64,000 nucleotides of DNA, from contig CM059429.1 in assembly GCA_030390025.1 (NCBI GenBank), forward strand, positions 32,240,001 through 32,304,000, read 5' to 3'. This DNA comes from Squalus acanthias (lineage: Eukaryota). Numbering within the stretch: position 1 is the first letter of the stretch; each line of letters begins with the position of its first letter. The translations under genes and the position numbers were made by a program. The notes beneath the pieces were generated by a model. That model searched no databases and had not been told where the DNA came from. It saw nothing but the letters and a program-made list of their open reading frames with translations. Below are positions 5,726-20,720 of this stretch, in pieces.

Positions 5726-6684
5726 GGGGTAGATACTGACTGTAGGCGGGTTTCAGGCGGCCAGCTGGCGGGACGGAAAGCCCGGTCCATTTTGAGGGCA
5801 AGGTCTGGTTAGCATGGGTTCGACAAGCTGCAGGCTGAAGACAAGCATCTCAGGACAGCCTGCCCAGGTTGTTTTTGTGGAGCTCCCATCGTACCAAAAA
5901 TAAATTACAACTTACCTGCTGGGCACCACTGAGGCTGGAGCACCAGCTGACACTTTGCAGTCTGTGCAAGGCAAAATGCTCTACCCAGTACCGTCCGAAA
6001 ATCGTTTTTGGGGTCCTATGTTCATCATATCCTGGGATGAAGGGGTTGATGTATGACGAAACGTTGAGCAGGTTGGGCCTATACTCATTGGAGTTTAGAA
6101 GAATGAGAGGTGATCTTTTTGAAACATACAAGATTCTGAGGGGGATTGACAGGGTAGATGCTGAGTGGATGTTTCCCCTCGTGGGGGAATCTAGAACGAG
6201 GGGGCATAGTTTCAGAATAAGGGGTCGCCCATTTAAGACGGAGATGAGGAGGAATTTCTTCTCTCAGAGGGTCGTGAATCTTTGGAATTCTCTACCCCAG
6301 AGAGCTGTGGAGGCGGAGTCATTGAATATATTCAAGGCGGAGATTGACAGACATTTGAACTACAAGGGAGTCAAGGGGTACAGGTAGAGAGCGGGAAAGT
6401 GGTGTTGAGGCCAAGATTGGATCAGCCATGATCTTATTGAATGGCGGAGCAGGCTCGAGGGGCCGATTGGCCTACTCCTGCTCCTGTTTCTTATGTTCTT
6501 ATGTTCATATTTGCATATTAAAAGGACCCACCACCTGACTCAGGCAGGTGCTCCAGCTGCCCAGCGTTGGGAAAGATAGAGACAGTTGCACCATTGGCGG
6601 GAATGAGGATGGAAGTCATACCCCATAATGTTCAGAGCGATACTTCCCTGTTTATGCTGGATGGAAGGCCTCAAAATCTCCCCC
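5726..6684. mobile_element. MITE interrupted by a CR1 insertion
   Basis: Ends ggggtagat... / ...aaaatctccccc with ACT on both flanks (5723-5725, 6685-6687). Confidence 0.55.
6031..6507 (+). mobile_element. CR1 LINE 3' fragment
   Basis: ORF2 C-terminus (LGLYSLEFRRMRGDL...VVNLWNSLP), 3' UTR hairpin ggagcagg...cctgctcc, (TTATGTTC)n tail, probable TSD catat. Confidence 0.9.
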
Positions 6685-8956: not shown

Positions 8957-11639
8957 CTTTAGACAGTTCTGCGCTCCTTCACCCAGCACCCAAAATGGTG
9001 CTGCAGCTTCCAAACTGCAGCAGCTCAATATGCCACCAGCTGGAAATTAGAATGGCCAATCAGAAATTAGCTGGCAGTTTCAATTCTCAGCAAAATATTT
9101 GATGTCTGTGACACGACACCGGAGCAAAATGGAGTTTAGAAGCCGACAGGAACAAACTCATTTCACAGAATATGAATTGTTTATTTCAGTCAAATAGTTT
9201 TTAAAATATAAAGATGCCATTTTCAGAATGCAGCAACATTATCTACTCCAGAAGAATGGAATTATTCACAAATTATAATTTCAGAAAAAAGTGATTAAAA
9301 TGTCTAAAATTCGCTGAATCCCATGGGACTGCAAGAATGCATTAACAGCCTTCAAAGGTGGCAAGAAATATTTACTCAAGTACTCAAGTGACTAAAGCAC
9401 ACAGAAGAGGCTCAGTTCCACTGAAGAACGTTTTTGCATGGTTGGAGGAAACCATCTCAAAGCATTTCAAGTTAGTCCCTGAAGAGGAAACCTTAGTCTC
9501 AGAGTCCCAACAGACTGGTAAGTATAATTTTTTTCTCTCGTAAATAATCACCCAGGTACAATAACTATAATTGAAAACAGTGGGCATAATGCATACGTTA
9601 AGAAGTATAATAATAACAGATTGAAAAGTAATGAGAAAATAAGTAAATCAGTGATGAGAAAAGGCCACTTAGCCCATTAAAGCTCTTCCTTACAGTAACT
9701 AACACTTCCCTTATGGCATCTAATTTTATATTAATAGGAAAATGTATTGCACTTTTCAGAATGTAATTTTTAAATATTCAAGAGCTCCGTGAAATAAATT
9801 CTATCCTTTTTGTCTCCACAGAGAAGCTATTTTCGTCTAGCTCCATTGCATTCATCCAGAAAGTCATACCCAAAGTTCAGGACAGAAACAAGTCACAGGA
9901 AGTTGGGAAATCCACTGGTGAGAAGTCAACAGCCACTGCACAGTTGTTAACCCGGAAGGGAGTACATAATATGCTACCCGATGGCTGGAGTTGTGTTACC
10001 TGTCACCAGATCCACCCAGGATCTTCTCTGAGGTAACACAAACATGCAGGAGGGTCCAACACAGAACTTAAGGTAGCATATCAGCTGCAGAAGGCAACTG
10101 CTGACTTTTGGATCACAACTTCTCCCCTCACAATATCTCAGAGCCTTGTAGAGGAGGAATGCCTGCTTCAGCAGGCCATTGACAATCTCTCTGTCAGTGT
10201 GCAATCTGATAACACTCAGATGCACACTGACATGGTGAGACCAAACAGTATTATGCAATTGGAGTAGTAACAGTTTGTTCGAATAGACTGGTTCTTGTGT
10301 AGCAGTCTAGTGTGAAACCAGCCATGCTCCTTTGTATTGCACTAGGATATATCCATTGAAAGCTCTCAGTTTTCTGAAGGCATTTCTTCTGAGGTTAGTA
10401 TCTACCTACCTGTAGCTGAGATGGCTCCCTCCAATCCAAAATACCACACTGGGATGTATCTTTCAATGGACAGTCCTTCCAAAGCTCAACCGTCCGTTTC
10501 TGAAATCAGTAAATAAAAATAATCAAATATTAGTCCTTTAGTCATGTATGTACTACAGAAATTGATTTTACAATATTATTGTTTTTTCTTCACTGTTCAT
10601 CTTTGTGTAATGTGTGTGCTAAATTAGTACAGTATTGCAGACATTGTAGTTACTATTTTTGTGTATATGATTTAGTCATTTAAGGCTACTATTTTAGACA
10701 ATTAATTAGACATTACATTTATGCTCAATATTGATATTTTGCAGCCTGTAATATTTTCTAGCTGTTGAAGTAAAAGCCAATTATTTTTCTCATTTATGCA
10801 TTCAGTGTCATCTTTGCCCACTCGACACAGATCTTTCAGCCCCATTTTATAATTAGAGTTGATTCTTCAATATGTTGTCTGTTCACCATCCTGGATGTAA
10901 CCAGATTGTTCAGTCACATGTGACATTCTTTTGCTTTCCAGGTCCTCCTCTCATGCATATATTAATGTTGAGGGTGTTTTGGCTTGTGCCAGTTCAAACC
11001 GTGCTATTAGGCATATTTAACATGTTAGTATCAATACAGTATTTGAAAAATTGCACTCAAGTTAATATGTTTTAATGTTGTGCCAATTTATTTTTTTGAT
11101 GCTCTTAATTAATCATCAAACCCACTCCTTCCGCAGAGTTTCTATACTTTGCCCTCAAGATATTTAATCTGAATAACCAGATGTACAACTTTGAAAAAGA
11201 TAGAACTGTGAAATTTCTCACTAACCCAAAGTAATCTTAAGTGACTCAGAGATATCAAACATTACAATCTTCAGTCAATTTGACCAGTTGCATTCCACAA
11301 ATGACTATTTAATTGCCCCAGCAGCATACAGCTATCATGTTCTGTCAAGTACTTGATCATCTCAGTTTGTTCTTATCCTTATAACTTTTTATCCGATTCT
11401 TAACCTGATATTTAGCCAGCTCTTTTTTTTGAAGAGCCTAATTTTTCTATGGGGAATAACATTCTAATTTCTAATTTTCCTTGGGAAGTGTTAAGAAGGA
11501 AAGGCTAGGAGGAATGCTTTATGTGAAAAATAGCCCCCTCGTATCTTTAAAAAGTCTATATATAAAACAGTATTTACTACCTTCTATAGCATATTTTAAT
11601 TGTTACCAATTATTTTAGCCCCCATGGAGACCCACCATT

Positions 11640-13310
11640 ACATAAGATCATAAGAATTAGGAGCAGGAGTAGGCCATACAGCCCCTCGAGCCTGCTCTGC
11701 CATTCAATAAGATCATGGCTGATCTTCGACCTCAACTCCACTTTCCCGCCGAAAATCCATATCCCTTGATTCCCCTAGAGTCCAAAAATCTATCTATCTC
11801 AGCCTCAAATATACTCAACAACTCAGCATCCACAGCCCTTTGGGATAGAGAATTCCAAAGATTCACAACCCTCTGAGTGAAGAAGATCCTCCTCATTTCA
11901 GTCTTAAATGGCCGACCCCTTATCCTGAGACTATGCCCCCTAGTCCTAAACTTTCCAGACAGATGAAACAACCTCTCAGCATCTACCCTGTCAATCCCCA
12001 TCAGAATCTTATATGTTTCAATGAGATCACCTCTGATTCTTCTAAACTCCAGAGAGTACAGGCCCAATCTGCTCAATCTCTCCTCATAGGACAACCCTCT
12101 CATCCCAGGGATCAATCTAGTAAACCTTCGTTGCACCGCCTCCAAGGCAAATATGTCCTTCCTCAGATAAGGAGACCAAAACTGTGCACAGTACTCCTGG
12201 TGCGGTCTCACCTGTACAAAGCCCTGTACAATTGTAATAAGACTTCCTTATTCTTGTACTCCAACCCCCTTGCAATAAAGGCCAACATGCCATTTGCCTT
12301 CCTAATGGCTTGCTGTACCTGCATGCTAACTTTCTGTGTTTCCTGTACAAGGACATCTAAATCTCTCTAAACACCAACATTTAATAGTTTCTCACCATTT
12401 AAAAAATATTCTGTTTTTCTATTCTTCCGACCAAAGTGAATAACCTCACATTTCCCCACATTATACTCCATCTGCCATTTTATTGCCCACTCACTTAACC
12501 GGTTTATATTTCCTTTGCCGGCTCTTTGAGTCCTCACAGCTTACTTTCCCACCTAGCTTTGTATCGTCAGCAAACTTGGATACATTGCACTCAGTCCCTT
12601 CATCCAAGTCATCAATATAGATTGTAAATAGCTGAGGCCCAAGCACTGATCCTTGCGGCACCCCACTAGTTATAGCCTGCCAACCGGAAAATGACCCGTT
12701 TATCCCTACTCTCTGTTTTCTGTCCATTAACCAATCCTCTATCCATGCTAATATATTAACCCCAACCCCGTGAGCCCTAATCTTACTTAGCAACCTTTTA
12801 TGTGGCACCTTATTGATGCCTTTTGGAAATCCAAATATACTACCTCCACTGGTTCCCCTTTATCTTCCCTGTTAGTTACATCCTCAAAAAACTCTAATAA
12901 ATTTGTTAAACACGATTTTCCTTTCATAAAACCATGTTGACTTTGCCTATTCATATTATGATTTTTTAAGTGCCTTGCTACCAGTTTCTTAATAATGGAT
13001 TCCAGCATTTTCCCAATGACTGATGTCAAGCTAACTGGCCTGTAGTTCCCTGTTTTCTCTCTCCCTCCTTTCTTGAATAGCGGGGTTACTCTTACTACCT
13101 TCCAATTTGCTGGGACCATTCTAGAATCTAGGGAATTTTGGGAAGATCACAATCAATGCAGCTACCTCTTTTAGAACCCTAGGATGTAGGCCATCATGGG
13201 GATTTATCGACTTTTACTCCCATTAGTTTCTCAAGTAGCTTTTCTCTACTGATATTAATTACTTTAAGTTCCTCACTCTCATTCGCCCCTTGGTTCCTCA
13301 CTATTTTTGG
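11640..13310 (-). mobile_element. CR1 LINE, 5'-truncated, frameshifted ORF2
   Basis: ORF pieces [32 protein letters not shown] and YSLEFRR in different frames; 3' UTR hairpin and (TTATGATC)n tail near 11640-11700. Confidence 0.92.
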
Positions 13311-13725
13311 TATGCTTTGTGGATCTTCTCCAGTTAAAATGGTTGTGACACCTCCCCACACTCTTCGTCAGTGGTAAAAACCCTTTCTAATGTTGTAGCA
13401 AGACTTTTCATCTACACTAGGAAGCAAAGGTAACCAATCCGGTCTGGATTTCCAACTCATTCATAGTCAATGGTGAGGTAAAATGACTCAGAACTATTGA
13501 CTAGCATAATTTAGCTAGGATGATAATTAATCTCACATTCAGGCAAGTTTTTTAGAAGAGTGGTTTGAACAGACCTTTAATTTCCACATGTCTGAATTTA
13601 ATATAAACTTTAATTTTAATATTGAAAATAATTGGATATGAAAGAGACTTACAGCTGGGAGTTACATACATCTAAGTTGCATGGCAGAGTTTAACCTTTG
13701 TTTACTCAATTGAGGCTGGATTATA

Positions 13726-13938
13726 CGTGCTAGTAAGAGTACAGAGAACAGGATAGTTAGGCTAAATACGTGGCTTGAGCAGTGGTGTAAGAGGGAGGGT
13801 TTTAAATTTTTGAGGCATTGGAACCAGTTTTGTGGTAGGTGTGACCTATACAAAAGGGACGGTCTACACCTGTGCAAAGATGGAACTGATGTTCTCGGGG
13901 TAATTTTTGATAAAGCAGTTCGGGAGCATTTAAACTAG
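13726..13938 (+). pseudogene. CR1 ORF1 C-terminal remnant (SGNH/GDSL esterase-like)
   Basis: Manual translation RASKSTENRIVRLNTWLEQWCKREGFKFLRHWNQFCGRCDLYKRDGLHLCKDGTDVLGVIFDKAVREHLN*. DGLHL matches the DxxH block of SGNH hydrolases known in CR1 ORF1. Confidence 0.8.
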
Positions 13939-16900
13939 TATGGCAGGGGGCTAGAAACCTATGTAGTGAAATAGAGGAAAGTGAAAGGCAGACAGAAATA
14001 AATGGTAAAAGAGTGAGGAACAAAAAACAAAGGGCCAAACTAATTCATAAAAAATGTGAGCATAAAAAAAGCCTGAGGGTTTTATACCTTAATGCGAGAA
14101 GCATCAGGACCAAGGTAGATGAATTAGCTGTGGAAATAGAGGTTAATAATTATGATCTAATTGGGATTACGGAAACATGGTTGCAGGGTGAGCAGGGCTG
14201 GGAGCTTAACATACAGGGGTATTCAGTATTTAGGAAGGATCGACAAAAAAGAAAGGGAGGAGGGGTAGCATTGCTGGTAAAAGAAGGGATAAATGCAATT
14301 GAAAGGAAGGATATTAACTCAGTTAATACAGAATCTATATGGGTGGAGCTAAGAAATAGCGAGGGGCGAAAAACATTAATAGGAGTGGTATATAGGCCTC
14401 CAAATAGTAAAATAGAGGTTGGGGAGGGCATCACGAGGGAAATTAGAGAAGCGTGCAATAAGAGCACAGCTGTCATCATAGGTGACTTTAACTTACATAT
14501 AGATTGGAATAGCCTAATCAGTAAAAATAATGAGGAGGAGGAATTCCTTGAGTGTTTAAGGGATGGTTATCTGGATCAATATGTCGAGGAACCAACTTGG
14601 GAACAGGCTATATTGGACTGGGTACTGTGCAATGAGAAGGGACTAATTAGTAATCTTGTTGTACGGGGACCCTTGGGTCAGAGCGATCATAACATGATCG
14701 ATTTCTCACTCGAAATGGAGAGCGAAGAAATTGACTCAGATACTAAGGTCCTGAATTTAAACAAGGGGAATTATGATGCCATTAGACGGGAACTGAGTAG
14801 GTCTGATTGGACAACGTTCCTGGGAGGACTGGAGGTAGATAAACAATGGCAAGCATTTAAAGATAGAATGACAAAATTGCAAAAATTGTTTATACCAATC
14901 TGGCATAAAAGGAAATCTAAAAAGGTGACTCAACCGTGGATAACAGGGGAAATTAGAGACAGCATAAAATCCAAAGATAGGGCGTATAAAATAGCCAAAA
15001 AAAGCGCCAGAGCGGAAGATTGGGAACAGTTTAAGATAGAGCAAAGGAGGACAAAGGGCTTAATCAAGAGGGGCAAAATAGCTTACGAAAGCAAGCTGGC
15101 GGACAATATAAAAACTAACTCCAAAAGCTTTTATAAGTATATCAAGAGGAAAAGACTGGTGAAAACCAAAGTTGGCCCATTGCAGTCAGATACGGGGGAA
15201 TATATAACGGGAAATAAGGAAATGGCAGACCAACTAAATGCATACTTTGGGTCAGTCTTTACGAAGGAAGACACAAAAAACCTCCCTGGGATATCGGGAA
15301 AAATAGGGACATTTGCAAAGGAGGAACTGACGCAAGTCAATATCTCTAAGGATATGGTGTTAAGGAAGCTAAAGGGATTGAAGGCGGACAATTCCCCAGG
15401 GCCTGATAACATGCATCCTAGGGTGCTGAAGGAGGTGGCCCTAGAGATAGCGGATGCACTAAGTATGATTTTTCAGAATTCATTAGACTCGGGAACAGTG
15501 CCCATGGATTGGAGGGTAGCTAACGTTACCCCACTATTCAAAAAGGGGGGTAGGGAAAAAGCAGGTAATTACAGACCTGTAAGCCTTACATCAGTTGTGG
15601 GCAAAATGCTGGAGTCCATCATTAAGGATGAAATAGCGGAGCACTTAGCAAATGGGGACAGGATAGGACAGAGTCAACATGGATTTACAAAGGGTAAATC
15701 GTGCTTGACTAATCTATTGGAATTTTTTGAGGGAGTAACTGGTAAAATAGATGGGGGAGAGCCAGTAGATGTGGTGTACCTGGACTTCCAAAAGGCCTTC
15801 GATAAGGTCCCACATAAAAGATTAGCAGGGAAAATTGAAGCTCATGGGATAAAGGGGAAAGTATTGACGTGGATAGAGAACTGGCTGTCAGATAGAAAAC
15901 AGAGAGTTGGAATAAACGGCTCATTTTCTGAATGGCAGGCAGTAACAAGTGGGGTACCACAGGGATCTGTCCTGGGTCCCCAGCTGTTCACAATTTACAT
16001 TAATGACCTGGATCAGGGAGTCGGATGCAGCATTTCCAAATTTGCAGACGACACTAAACTAGGAGGGGGGGTGGGCTCAGAGGAGGAGACCAGGAAGCTC
16101 CAGAGCGATTTGGACAGACTGGGTGATTGGGCGGATAAATGGCAGATGCACTATAATGTGGACAAGTGCGAAGTTATCCACCTTGGGTGCAGGAACGGGA
16201 GGGCAAATTATTATTTAAATGGCAATAAATTGGGAGAGGGGGAAGTACAGAGAGACCTGGGTGTTCTTGTACACCAGTCACTGAAGGCGAGCATGCAGGT
16301 GCAACAGGCGGTCAAGAAGGCAAACGGTATGCTGGCCTTCATAGCAAAAGGGTTGGAATACAGGAACAGGGATACCTTGCTGCAGCTGTACAGGGCACTG
16401 GTGAGACCACACCTCGAGTACTGTGTACAGTTTTGGTCGCCTCATCTGAGGAAAGATGTTCTTGCCATGGAGGGGGTGCAGCGGCGATTCACCAGGCTGA
16501 TACCAGGAATGGCGGGATTGACCTATGAGGAGAGACTATGTAGTTTAGGGATGTACACACTGGAGTTTAGAAGATTGAGAGGGGACCTCATAGAAGTGTA
16601 TAAAATTCTGACAGGTCTAGACAGACTAGATGCAGAAGGAATGTTTCCCTTGGCGGGTGAGAACAGAACTAGAGGACATAATTTAAGGATAAGGGCTAAA
16701 CCATTTAGGACAGAAATGAGGGGGAATTTCTTCACTCAGAGGGTGGTGAACCTGTGGAACTCATTGCCACAGAGGGCAGTGTACGCCAGCTCATTAAATA
16801 TATTTAAGAGGGAATTAGATGTATTTCTACAGGCAAAAGGGGTTAAGGGTTACGGAGAGAAGGCGGGGACGGGATACTGAATTGGAGGATCAGCCATGAT

Positions 16901-16979
16901 CTCATTAAATGGCGGAGCAGGCTCGAAGGGCCGGATGGCCTACTCCTGCTCCTATCTTCTATGTATCTATGTATCTATG
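13727..16979 (+). mobile_element. Young CR1 LINE, truncated within ORF1, intact ORF2
   Basis: ORF1 C-terminal remnant, uninterrupted ORF2, 3' UTR hairpin, (CTATGTAT)x3 tail, probable TSD tatac (13722-13726 / 16980-16984). Confidence 0.95.
14013..16880 (+). CDS. CR1 ORF2: APE endonuclease plus reverse transcriptase (frame open from 13914; true start uncertain)
   Basis: EN motifs YLNARS, ITETW, GDFN, SDHN; RT motifs [30 protein letters not shown]; no stops over 955 codons. Confidence 0.93.
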   Translation: MRNKKQRAKLIHKKCEHKKSLRVLYLNARSIRTKVDELAVEIEVNNYDLIGITETWLQGEQGWELNIQGYSVFRKDRQKRKGGGVALLVKEGINAIERKDINSVNTESIWVELRNSEGRKTLIGVVYRPPNSKIEVGEGITREIREACNKSTAVIIGDFNLHIDWNSLISKNNEEEEFLECLRDGYLDQYVEEPTWEQAILDWVLCNEKGLISNLVVRGPLGQSDHNMIDFSLEMESEEIDSDTKVLNLNKGNYDAIRRELSRSDWTTFLGGLEVDKQWQAFKDRMTKLQKLFIPIWHKRKSKKVTQPWITGEIRDSIKSKDRAYKIAKKSARAEDWEQFKIEQRRTKGLIKRGKIAYESKLADNIKTNSKSFYKYIKRKRLVKTKVGPLQSDTGEYITGNKEMADQLNAYFGSVFTKEDTKNLPGISGKIGTFAKEELTQVNISKDMVLRKLKGLKADNSPGPDNMHPRVLKEVALEIADALSMIFQNSLDSGTVPMDWRVANVTPLFKKGGREKAGNYRPVSLTSVVGKMLESIIKDEIAEHLANGDRIGQSQHGFTKGKSCLTNLLEFFEGVTGKIDGGEPVDVVYLDFQKAFDKVPHKRLAGKIEAHGIKGKVLTWIENWLSDRKQRVGINGSFSEWQAVTSGVPQGSVLGPQLFTIYINDLDQGVGCSISKFADDTKLGGGVGSEEETRKLQSDLDRLGDWADKWQMHYNVDKCEVIHLGCRNGRANYYLNGNKLGEGEVQRDLGVLVHQSLKASMQVQQAVKKANGMLAFIAKGLEYRNRDTLLQLYRALVRPHLEYCVQFWSPHLRKDVLAMEGVQRRFTRLIPGMAGLTYEERLCSLGMYTLEFRRLRGDLIEVYKILTGLDRLDAEGMFPLAGENRTRGHNLRIRAKPFRTEMRGNFFTQRVVNLWNSLPQRAVYASSLNIFKRELDVFLQAKGVKGYGEKAGTGY

Positions 16980-18789
16980 TATACTTGTATTTTTCCATAA
17001 AGGCTCATTGACGTGCCAAAACTATTTTATTCACTCTTTCTTATTTGCGTGATTATTCATTGTATCCAAAAATTCTGAAATACTGTTTTTTGTAAAGAAA
17101 ATTAAACAACTTTCCTTGGGGGAAAATAAACCTGTTCAGTACAAGGCAATGCTGTCTGTTGCAATGTAAAAGGATCAAGTTATTTGATCAATCGCACATA
17201 TGTATTCATACATGGGATTCATTTAGTCAGAGCTTTGCATAAATATTTTTGATGGTGTACAGGACTCAGCAGGAACAGTAACTGTGAATGTGTACAACCT
17301 AAGCCATATATGAGTTTCAGCTTGTTTGGTACCTGCTTTACATTTAGAAGGGAACACTAAAAAATAGTGGAAGAGATAAGAGGCGTATAGTTTGTCAGGT
17401 GTTTCACTATTCACCATATTTTTATCAACACAAACATACTGGAACACAGATGTGATCTGTCTACGGAAGCACTACAATTTCAGTATCAGAAATGAAACTG
17501 ACTTTCTGCCTTTGGGAATTAGCATTGATGACTCTGGTATAACACAAATACTTGGATATCTGGAAAAAGGTTTTTTTTTCCTTTTTGCAGCAGTCTTCTG
17601 ATTGGTTCACGATGTTCTCCTGGACAAACAGCTAGACAGTGATCAGAAAATGCTCTTGAAAATTGCAAGAGATGACTCAACCCACCCATTCACCAAGCTG
17701 CCTATTTGATATTTTTAGTACTAACAACACCCACTGGTGATGCAAAGAGTGCTTGAAAGCATTGAATGACCAGTGTAGTAAAGGTTACTTAATTTAAGCT
17801 TTACTGAGGAATTAATGCAGAGAGAGCTCATCGGTGTTGCTGACTAGCATTGCATGCAATGTATTAAATATATGATGTTCCAACTGCAAAGATACTCACT
17901 CTAATGAATAACATTAATCCATAAAATTGAAAAATAAGTTGAAAAATCAAAATTTGATATTGATGTTTTGTGTGAGCTTGGTGTAGTAGTCATTGCATTA
18001 GTTTAATGTCCTGATTCTATTGCACATTACGGACTGAAGAACATAGATTGATTATAACCATCATGAACTGTTCCTGCTTCTTGGCGACCCTTGCTGGTGT
18101 CATTCTGGTTTGGCTTCTAGGTTGTGTATCCATAATGCATCACATAATGATGGGTTAGTGTATTACATTAACATGCTGTTACATTATGAGATGATCCATG
18201 TATGCTCCCCAAAATAATTGTGAAAATATTTTGTAAAGCCAGTTCAACTGTCCAAAGTACATATTTCACTTCTGGGACAGCCAGAACAGAACTGGAAACA
18301 TTCCTCTTTTTGGGCTGCAGAAGCTAATTTAACCTTAATGATGCAGCACCATTTTGTTGAGTAAAAGTAACTTCACAATGTCTAGTAACTTAAAGTGCCT
18401 CATCGTTTACCTACTTTATTGATTTCAGTAGGTTACTGATCACAATTGAATGGTGACATGAACAGAAAAAAAATCAAAAAGGTATAAAATTAAAGTTCTC
18501 ATTTGATTTTTCCTATGTTTGAGATAGATTTTAGTAAACAGCAATAAGACTTAACCTATAATGTATACATACGAAAAAGCAGCTCAATATATTCCATCAT
18601 TCATCTCTTTTATTTATTTGCATGTTCATTATTTTGCATTTATAACAAGAAAACAAAGAAAGAAGAGAGAATTTATAACACAAATTTATTACCAAATTCA
18701 TGCTGATAGCATGACCAAATCATACATTGGCACCTCTAGTCTGTTATCATCCAATTGGACATGTACTTGAAGAGGACTCATTTTCAGGG

Positions 18790-20720
18790 TTATGGGGAAT
18801 GGGGCGGTAGTTTGCATGGATGGAGTTGTTGAAGGTTGTTTTTTTGAGGAGAGAATTGAAGGAGAGGGGGACAGTACCTGAGGAGAGAGAACCGTTAACA
18901 ATGTCAGCTAACATGGGAGCCAGAAAAGGAAGTTGGGTGGTCAGCAGTTTAGTGGGAATAGGGTCGAGGGAGCAGAAAGTGGGTCTCATGGACAAGATGA
19001 GCGTGGAGAGGTCAAGAGGGGAGACCGGAGAGAAACCGGAGAAAGATGAAAGTTCAGGGTTAGGGCAGGGGGGAGCCTGAGAGGAAGTTTGGCCTGGTGG
19101 GCTAGGGGAAGGAAGGGAAGAGGCAGCGGGAGCTGATCAGATGGTCTCAATCTTAGAGACAAAGATGTCCATGAGCTCCTCGCACTTGTTGTTGGAGGTG
19201 AGGGTGGAGGAGACAGGGGAAAGGGATTTAAGAAAAAGGTTAGCAGTAGAGAATAGTAGTCAGAGGTTATCTTTGCATTCCAGGATAATCCTGGATTAGT
19301 GAGCAGTTTTGGCAGACAAGAGTAGGACCCGATAATGCGGTGAATGGCTAAACCAGTTATCCGCCATATCCGTTCAAGTCTGCGTCCCTTGTACTTGAGG
19401 GAGCAAAGATGAGGGCTGTACCAGGGGGAACAGCCAGGGTGAGAGAGAGTAATGGTTTTAATAGGGACTATGGCATCAAAGGTGGTGGTGAGGGTGTGGT
19501 TGAGCAGATCGGTAGCTGCAGAAATGTCGTGGTGAATGGAAGGCCAAAGGCTGGACAGTTGAGATTTCGTAAGTGCAGTTGTAAGAGAGTTGGGAAGAGA
19601 GATTTTTCCAGGGGTGGACACAGAAGGAAGTAGGGTTGGGTGGGGAAGGAGGATGTGGGTGGAGAGCGATACAAGGAAGTAGTCAGAGATGGCCTTATCT
19701 GTGATTGACATGGTGGGGGTAGCGAGGCCACATGAGATGGCAAGATCAAGGGAGTGGCCGTGAATATGGGTTGGGGAATTTACATGGAGGGAGGATAGGA
19801 GGCTAGTGAACTCAGAGGAGAGAGAGCATGATGAATTGAGATGGAGGTTCCAATCACTGAGGATGATAAGTCGCTCAGTGCAGAGGCTGAGGGAGGAAAG
19901 CAGTGAAGATATTTTGGTGATAAAATTTTTAGCGTACTTGGGTGGGCGGCAGAGTACGAGAATTTTAAATGGGAGGTGAGAGGGGTGGAACAAGGTGAGA
20001 TGCTCAAAGGAGGAGAAAATGCCAGAGGATTAGGGGGACAGACCAAGGTGTGATTTGGTGATGAGCCACACCGCCACCATGGCGGTCTGGGCGGAGCAAG
20101 TGGTGGAAGGTATAGCCAGACGGGGAGGCTTCATTTAAGGGTAAGGTGTCATCACCCCTCAGCCAAGTTTCCGTCAGGGCCATGATGTTGATGCAATCAT
20201 CGGGGATAAGCTCATGGATGGTAAGGGCCTTGTTCGCAAGTGAACGGACATTCTAGAGGGAGCTGCAGAGAGGATCGGTGATGACTGATCCAGTGCCAGC
20301 CTCCACAGGGTCAGCACTGGGAGGGGTGAGTTGGACGGGGAGGAGATTGTCAAGGTTAGCCCCCCATGGGCGGGAAGGTCGGTGAGAAAGTAGGATAGGA
20401 CAGTTGGGGTTGCTACTCGTGAGGAGACAGTGACGAGTGTCTCGGTGGGCTCTTCGGAGGATGCCAAGAGAGGCACAGAGGGAAGCTGTAGGCCTATCTA
20501 AGAGGGAGTCAAGCCTGGGACGGCAGCAGGAGAGTAGGAAGGTCAAAGAGTAATGAAGGATTGGGGTAGGGATTTGGGAGGGCAGAGTATCCGAGAGAGG
20601 AGAGATGAAAGGCGGCATGGCAACAGGAGAGGGATAGAAAAGAAAAAGGGGGAGAAAGAAGTGAAAATAGAAGTGTACGGCTCGGGTCCAGAACGGCAGC
20701 CAAAATGCACACGCAAATGG
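18790..20720 (-). mobile_element. L2 LINE, degraded endonuclease and N-terminal RT region
   Basis: Minus-strand peptides LCRPPK, ILSDWNLHLN, PTHIHGHSLDLAIS, LDPIPTKLL and ANYRPI across frameshifts; strong purine skew on + strand. Confidence 0.85.

Follow-up and report, generated by a model that had tools for sequence, protein, structure and literature searches.

We examined a 64,000-nucleotide stretch of the Squalus acanthias genome (assembly GCA_030390025.1, contig CM059429.1, positions 32,240,001 to 32,304,000 of the forward strand; hereafter the window), focusing on a copy of a CR1 long interspersed nuclear element (LINE) whose two open reading frames (ORF1 and ORF2) meet at a canonical ribosomal slippery sequence. 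We consider it likely (probability roughly 0.8) that CR1 LINEs of this lineage produce their endonuclease and reverse transcriptase (RT) by low-level -1 frameshifting at U_UUA_AAC, which would give an ORF1-ORF2 fusion protein. An esterase-endonuclease-RT fusion arising in this way had been proposed in the original prediction, and sequence comparison supports it: the heptamer is conserved, and the family form of the element has no in-frame ATG up to position 14200. The heptamer bases are deeply conserved across jawed vertebrates.

In the proposed mechanism, most ribosomes would end at the ORF1 stop and yield abundant ORF1 protein. In a minority, tRNA-Leu and tRNA-Asn would slip from UUA AAC onto UUU AAA, and decoding would resume at the codon at 13935-13937, adding about 980 residues that comprise a linker, the endonuclease and the RT. 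The pause may come from the stop next to the heptamer, where termination would be slow, and a run of G residues 10 nt downstream might contribute. Given the lack of a 3' structure, the shift is probably inefficient; a low efficiency would fit the view that a LINE needs little ORF2 protein (PMC3894237; here and below, statements from cited papers refer to the accessible portions of their texts).

Anatomy of the ORF1-ORF2 Junction

The window copy has the features of vertebrate CR1 elements, namely an esterase ORF1, an ORF2 with an apurinic/apyrimidinic-type (APE) endonuclease and an RT, and a 3' microsatellite tail instead of poly(A) (Table 1). An esterase ORF1 is of the CR1 type (PMC13343379). 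The relatives of the ORF1 remnant, 63-67% identical to it at the C-terminus, are SGNH-esterase ORF1 proteins bearing PF13472, one of them named from sawshark. By eye, the window junction also resembles CR1-named rows of catshark and sawfish in the portion of the published consensus set described below.

All junction coordinates of the original prediction (the TAA closing the ORF2 frame, the TTTAAAC, the TAG, the GTG and the first in-frame ATG) were confirmed. The same is true of its description of an ORF2 frame that lies at -1 relative to ORF1 and has no ATG until 14694; it runs for 988 codons without a stop. By Pfam, the endonuclease spans residues 60-262 of the frame and the RT residues 546-756, and the first Met is codon 261, so it falls at the end of the endonuclease. 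A stretch of 260 codons free of Met has a probability of about 0.002 at the Met rate of the remaining ORF2. The heptamer is in the correct phase and occupies the last possible position before the ORF1 stop. Canonical heptamers occur at 0.57% of the positions of the element, which for one copy corresponds to a chance of about 3% of finding one at any of the six in-phase positions of the overlap and of 0.6% at the last of them.

Table 1. Coordinates of the studied CR1 copy and its junction features in the window.
Feature	Position	Strand	Evidence
CR1 LINE copy, 5'-truncated (ORF1 remnant, intact ORF2 frame, 3' untranslated region (UTR), octamer tail)	13725..16981	+	Sequence, reading frames, Pfam; family reads and contigs diverge before 13725
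ORF1 3' end: C-terminal ~70 codons of SGNH esterase, ending His-Leu-Asn-stop	13725..13938	+	Translation; weak PF13472 match (E 0.028); 63-67% identity to full esterase ORF1 proteins
TAA closing the ORF2 frame, five codons ahead of the slip site	13911..13913	+	Sequence; TGA at the same position in L001
Slippery heptamer T_TTA_AAC in ORF1 phase	13929..13935	+	Sequence; kept in L001 and in 18 published consensus junctions (portion covered)
ORF1 stop TAG adjoining the heptamer; candidate stimulator	13936..13938	+	Sequence; relatives have TAG, TAA or TGA here (portion covered)
GGGGG run 10 nt past the heptamer; candidate unstructured stimulator	13946..13950	+	Sequence; same spacing in L001 and, by eye, in 5/18 consensus junctions (portion covered)
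Frame of ORF2 (988 codons; -1 relative to ORF1) with a basic linker, the APE endonuclease (~14091-14699) and the RT (~15549-16181)	13914..16880	+	Reading frames, Pfam
In-frame GTG, one of two near-cognate codons ahead of the endonuclease (the other: CTG 14073)	14013..14015	+	Sequence; L001 has none
Earliest in-frame ATG, where the endonuclease domain ends	14694..14696	+	Sequence, Pfam
Three copies of the 8-nt unit TCTATGTA closing the element, CR1-style in place of poly(A)	16958..16981	+	Sequence

Upstream of 13725, family reads and contigs continue with sequence that departs from the window, so the studied copy is 5'-truncated. It is unable to make ORF1 protein or the fusion itself, and the signal that it carries is a relic of its source element and belongs to the family. 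The family form is represented by a 3,245-nt contig of run X1 that spans 13725-14200 with two differences (14012 and 14110), no gap and no new in-frame ATG; this run may be from the window's own species or sample, and it shows the family form rather than independent support. An ATG ahead of the endonuclease in the family form had been named at the outset as evidence against frameshifting, and none is present up to 14200.

RNA run X23 gave 1,865 matching reads, with a depth of approximately 85-100 across the junction, while seven reads matched in run X21 and none in run X22. The RNA reads are about equal on both strands, so expression of the element cannot be read from run X23. None of the 40 (of 117) read differences listed falls in the heptamer, and no joint, no indel in at least 3 reads in 100 and no pile-up of read starts is listed at the junction in run X23. 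These reads bear on transcriptional slippage, whereby a base added in a T or A run would produce fused-frame RNAs. Short T3 and A3 runs do lie within the overlap, but runs of three are short for polymerase slippage, the motif obeys the ribosomal heptamer rule, and no insertion is listed in run X23 at the level of at least 3 reads in 100. We regard slippage as barely credible.

Conservation of the Slippery Heptamer in DNA

We scanned metagenomes with esterase patterns from which the ORF1 end was excluded and recovered 19 loci, four of which have an esterase ORF followed by an endonuclease; the other 15 gave no endonuclease match. In L001 and L002 the endonuclease follows in the -1 frame behind a heptamer, and in L003 and L005 it follows in the same frame behind TGA-C. 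The first of these loci, L001, has an esterase 46% identical to the query and an ORF1 end that matches sturgeon proteins. It reads CAT TTA AAC TAG, and its -1 frame is closed by a stop (TGA) at the same offset as in the window. The 40 codons that separate this stop from the endonuclease motif of L001 contain no ATG, CTG, GTG, TTG or ACG.

The more distant L002 (29% esterase identity) carries G_GAT_TTT CAC TAA at 856-868, followed by an intact -1 frame of 970 codons whose first Met lies inside the endonuclease. At the ORF1 end of L003 (531-533) and L005 (1326-1328) we found TGA followed by C, with the same frame continuing into endonuclease motifs, which suggests stop-codon readthrough in these sister (L2-like) lineages. 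The proteins P0102 and P0104 have a sense codon where related ORF1s stop.

Published consensus sequences provide a broader sample. The supplement of PMC13343379 holds approximately 1,000 vertebrate CR1-group consensus sequences; the first 400 nt of each row were covered and positions were judged by eye, so most full-length rows fall outside this coverage, and the consensus counts given here and below apply to it. TTTAAAC followed by a stop matched 23 times, and 18 of these matches mark the end of ORF1 or immediately precede endonuclease coding (TAG, 11 of 12; TAA, 6 of 8; TGA, 1 of 3). The hosts of the 18 junctions are catshark, dogfish, stingray, sawfish, chimaera, halosaur, bowfin, coelacanth, bullfrog, alligator, crocodile and bearded dragon. 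Probes with other Leu/Asn codons or another first base (17 probes, not covering every variant) gave 33 matches, none of them at a junction. The variants without a junction match include TTA AAT, although with this codon pair the residues of both frames would stay the same. A search for an upstream esterase motif returned eight matches: all six in CR1 rows are followed by TTTAAAC-stop, and the remaining two are unrelated L2 sequence. Free synonymous variation of the heptamer, which would speak against a frameshift signal, was thus not seen in the rows covered.

Two further observations concern the surroundings of the motif. A stop in the -1 frame upstream of the slip site is also present, by eye, in catshark, sawfish, stingray, dogfish, alligator, crocodile and halosaur rows, as TAA, TAG or TGA; at the protein level, compatibility with such a stop is 25/49 and 30/43, no higher than at several other offsets. 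Two full-length dogfish consensus rows, 891 (CR1-18) and 896 (CR1-3), contain TTTAAAC plus stop in what appears to be their 5' UTR as well.

C-Termini of ORF1 Proteins

The phase of the heptamer leaves a trace in protein sequences: T_TTA_AAC requires that the codon before the final Leu-Asn (LN) ends in T, and G_GGA_AAC requires that the codon before a final Gly-Asn (GN) ends in G. We assembled 152 proteins (the best 150 of 245 ORF1 relatives plus two from a separate search), 49 of which end in LN and 10 in GN. The residue before LN is unable to have a codon ending in T in one protein and unable to have one ending in G in 19, and the corresponding numbers before GN are eight and zero (Fisher p 3e-6, uncorrected for kinship). 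A second search found LN at the end of 46 of 59 proteins. Named hosts of LN-ending proteins include sharks, skates, rays, eel, sturgeon, Hyla, Xenopus, two turtles and two lizards. In seven copies with a frame error, Phe-Lys-Leu appears near the ORF1 end, corresponding to TTT AAA CT read in the -1 frame.

Natural termini were defined as those ending 22-33 residues past the esterase His motif, which left 93 proteins (59 were dropped, 26 lacking the motif and 33 with other tail lengths). These were compared with the four shiftiest eukaryotic heptamers of PMC5009743, a source in which U_UUA_AAC, G_GGA_AAC and G_GGU_UUU are among the shiftiest sites. One of the four heptamers fits 53 of the 93 termini, 45 of them at the very end and eight one residue earlier, compared with zero to three at each of the next 14 offsets.

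From the proteins, the GN group appears to have switched to G_GGA_AAC. The residue before GN can end in G in all 19 GN proteins, nine of which came from a query with the GN group itself. The sole named GN protein is from snow crab.

The conserved bases could instead reflect a constraint on the protein (the C-terminal Leu-Asn, or dual coding) or some other RNA signal, with ORF2 translated from a spliced or internally started RNA. The C-terminal Asn is indeed common to the LN and GN groups, and the unstranded-looking RNA run and the contigs leave room for rare RNA forms. However, at the 18 consensus junctions Leu-Asn is always written TTA AAC with a preceding T, and 0 of the 33 variant matches fall there. 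Dual coding would itself need a shift, given that both the window and L001 have a -1 stop five codons upstream and no start codon after it ahead of the site, and neither a joint nor a start pile-up is listed in run X23. We consider this explanation very improbable.

Among the proteins, P0165 and P0209 are LN-ending CR1 ORF1 proteins filed under Pseudomonas aeruginosa and the frog parasite Protopolystoma, and probably reflect contamination of these assemblies by host or sample DNA. P0214 is a predicted protein with an endonuclease ahead of the esterase, probably from a rearranged or nested copy. Scans of viral contigs found no relative, and a genome scan gave two weak, irrelevant loci.

Stimulators, Counter-Evidence and Reinitiation

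Several observations weigh against frameshifting, and the first concerns its stimulation. The original prediction had seen no strong downstream pseudoknot by eye, and folding bears out the lack of structure: z is 0.35 for 13936-14030 and ranges from -0.98 to 0.44 for windows of 40-200 nt. Downstream of the heptamer, neither the window nor L001 nor L002 has a hairpin that folds better than shuffled sequence (z -1.31 to 1.21). The folding program does not model pseudoknots, yet a strong first stem is lacking. We also considered whether 13939-13962 pairs at long range with other parts of the element and rejected this, since the best duplex reaches -22.2 kcal/mol versus -20.6 +/- 1.9 kcal/mol for shuffles (evaluated on a coarser grid). 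Because neither a hairpin nor a better-than-shuffled long-range duplex was found, the usual stimulator is missing, and the junction is not to be filed with heptamer-plus-pseudoknot sites, which have a stem-loop or pseudoknot 5-9 nt downstream.

The proteins add further points on this side. None of the four heptamers fits 40 of the 93 natural termini, and in two of the 46 LN-ending proteins from the second search the preceding residue is Glu, which is incompatible with T_TTA. DNA for the GN group was found neither in the viral-contig scan nor as a read-through copy, and a probe of the covered portion of the consensus supplement gave 0 matches. In addition, the lineages share ancestry, so the counts given above are not independent events. 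The last points on this side are start codons, discussed with reinitiation below.

Two elements of the junction are candidate stimulators, the adjacent stop and the G5 run. Stop identity varies among the consensus junctions (all three stops occur) while the heptamer stays. The G run has other spacings in most of the other consensus rows and is absent in at least three, these rows being often degraded. In the window the run also encodes a Gly in ORF2.

The main rival explanation for ORF2 translation is termination-reinitiation, in which ribosomes would stop at the end of ORF1 and restart at an overlapping AUG (a SART1-like UAAUG) or at a non-AUG codon, releasing a free ORF2 protein, with TTTAAAC serving as the termination/reinitiation context. 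Mammalian L1 translates ORF2 by termination-reinitiation, and human L1 reinitiates at a non-AUG codon. Reinitiation is also the best documented LINE mechanism (SART1; PMC3894237, PMC3708506). An in-frame stop-start overlap (TAATG) occurs at 3/18 consensus junctions, in some shark subfamilies, where frameshifting and reinitiation could coexist; it is absent from the other 15, from the window and from L001. In the window the stop reads TAG, and the only ATG nearby (13940) belongs to the +1 frame, where it starts a run of just four codons. Later starts are available in some copies: two ray copies (P0184 and P0187) have a Met in the linker before the endonuclease, and the window linker contains both an in-frame CTG and the GTG at 14013, the latter with A at -3. 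L001, on the other hand, lacks any start or near-start codon before the endonuclease. Within 90 nt upstream of the stop, the TGGGA reinitiation motif occurs once in L001 and is absent from the window. SART1 requires a downstream structure (PMC3708506), and none was found here. Reinitiation also leaves unexplained the X_XXY_YYZ phase of the conserved bases and the apparent base switch before the last two codons, and we judge it unlikely.

Comparison with Known Frameshifting Systems

The predicted CR1 frameshift shares several properties with canonical -1 programmed ribosomal frameshifting, as in coronavirus 1a/1b (U_UUA_AAC) and in the gag-pol genes of retroviruses and animal long terminal repeat (LTR) retrotransposons: the same heptamer, in phase within a short overlap, with the polymerase in the -1 frame behind a structural ORF. 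It differs in having no stem-loop 5-9 nt downstream, in the stop that adjoins the heptamer, and in its non-LTR host element. The original prediction considered frameshifting to be typical of LTR elements. It is known there but is not confined to them, being stated also for ORF2 of the Dictyostelium LINEs TRE5-A and TRE3-A, which are said to need a -1 frameshift (PMC5911963). Like CR1, these are APE-type LINEs, but they belong to another host and another element group, and no esterase ORF1 appears in the accessible part of their description. For Paramecium LINEs, +1 shifting, reinitiation or readthrough has been suggested (PMC5405496).

A role for the adjacent stop has a precedent in pea enation mosaic virus, an umbravirus with the site G_GAU_UUU_UGG_UAG, where any stop, and no sense codon, just 3' of the heptamer supports shifting (PMC5009743). 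L002 resembles this arrangement, with G_GAT_TTT, one codon and TAA, and the CR1 junctions covered likewise use all three stops. In the virus there is, in addition, a 3' structure that makes a long-range contact, unlike CR1, in which none was found.

For the G run, the nearest likeness is the protein-stimulated frameshifting of the porcine virus PRRSV, in which an unstructured C-rich motif lies 11 nt 3' of the site, at a fixed spacing near the mRNA entry channel (PMC5009743). The CR1 run is G-rich rather than C-rich, and its binding by a protein is putative. Unstructured, protein-bound stimulators lie 11-14 nt from the site in arteriviruses and cardioviruses (PMC5009743).

CR1 shares with SART1 and mammalian L1 a bicistronic LINE RNA and, by prediction, a low ORF2 output, and a few shark CR1 subfamilies have TAATG as well. 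SART1, however, needs an overlapping AUG and a downstream structure and makes a free ORF2 protein, whereas most of the CR1 junctions covered have no AUG.

A more sweeping reading, which we offer tentatively and would not bet on, is that LINEs of the CR1 group with an esterase ORF1 make RT only as a gag-pol-like fusion. Vertebrate members would use a structure-free U_UUA_AAC shift that has persisted for about 450 million years; its drivers would be the stop next to it and a G run that keeps a fixed spacing and may be bound by a protein. Their invertebrate relatives would have replaced the heptamer by G_GGA_AAC, G_GGU_UUY or G_GAU_UUU, and readthrough of UGA-C would take its place in sister lineages.

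Novelty and Implications

We found no report of CR1 frameshifting in the literature searched, the founding CR1 papers of 1997-2006 being outside its reach. A turtle CR1 paper reportedly noted a short overlap of the ORFs, and for this reason a one-line earlier proposal for CR1 is quite possible, at about even odds. The conservation of the heptamer, its exchange and the missing structure are absent from the accessible literature. Among LINE ORF2 mechanisms, frameshifting is not listed in the accessible part of PMC3894237, in which the translation of LINE ORF2 is called an open question. The word "frameshift" is likewise missing from the accessible parts of PMC4120745, PMC3905857, PMC8665684, PMC3708506, PMC11203168 and PMC3159450, as are "frameshift", "overlap" and "slippery" from that of PMC13343379. 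PMC6609765 and PMC4255032 mention frameshifts only as mutations in the parts accessible, and CR1 is unmentioned in PMC5009743 (first 300,000 of 449,034 characters).

In most vertebrate species the dominant retrotransposons are those of the CR1 group (PMC13343379). If the frameshift is real, the CR1 ORF2 protein would carry the ORF1 protein, including its esterase, at its N-terminus, unlike that of L1. Annotating CR1 ORF2 from its first ATG would then leave out the endonuclease, and calls of "intact" elements would need to include the junction. The site would also be a natural eukaryotic -1 frameshift of great age that does not depend on a 3' structure. The conserved heptamer makes the translation of CR1 ORF2 cheaply testable.

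Other Features of the Window

Older, broken CR1 fragments covering RT and 3' sequence, approximately 70% identical to the studied copy, lie at 11639-13343 (minus strand) and 6031-6504 (plus strand). The minus-strand fragment is arranged head to head with the studied copy, about 380 nt away. The CR1 pieces of the window other than the studied copy reach the RT and the 3' end only, not the junction. At 18747-20252 on the minus strand there is a decayed LINE of another type, probably L2-like, with endonuclease-like stretches and a 347-codon frame that gave no Pfam match. Finally, a single open frame of 310 codons at 43162-44094 on the plus strand encodes an HMG box and a SOXp domain and is a SoxB-type gene.

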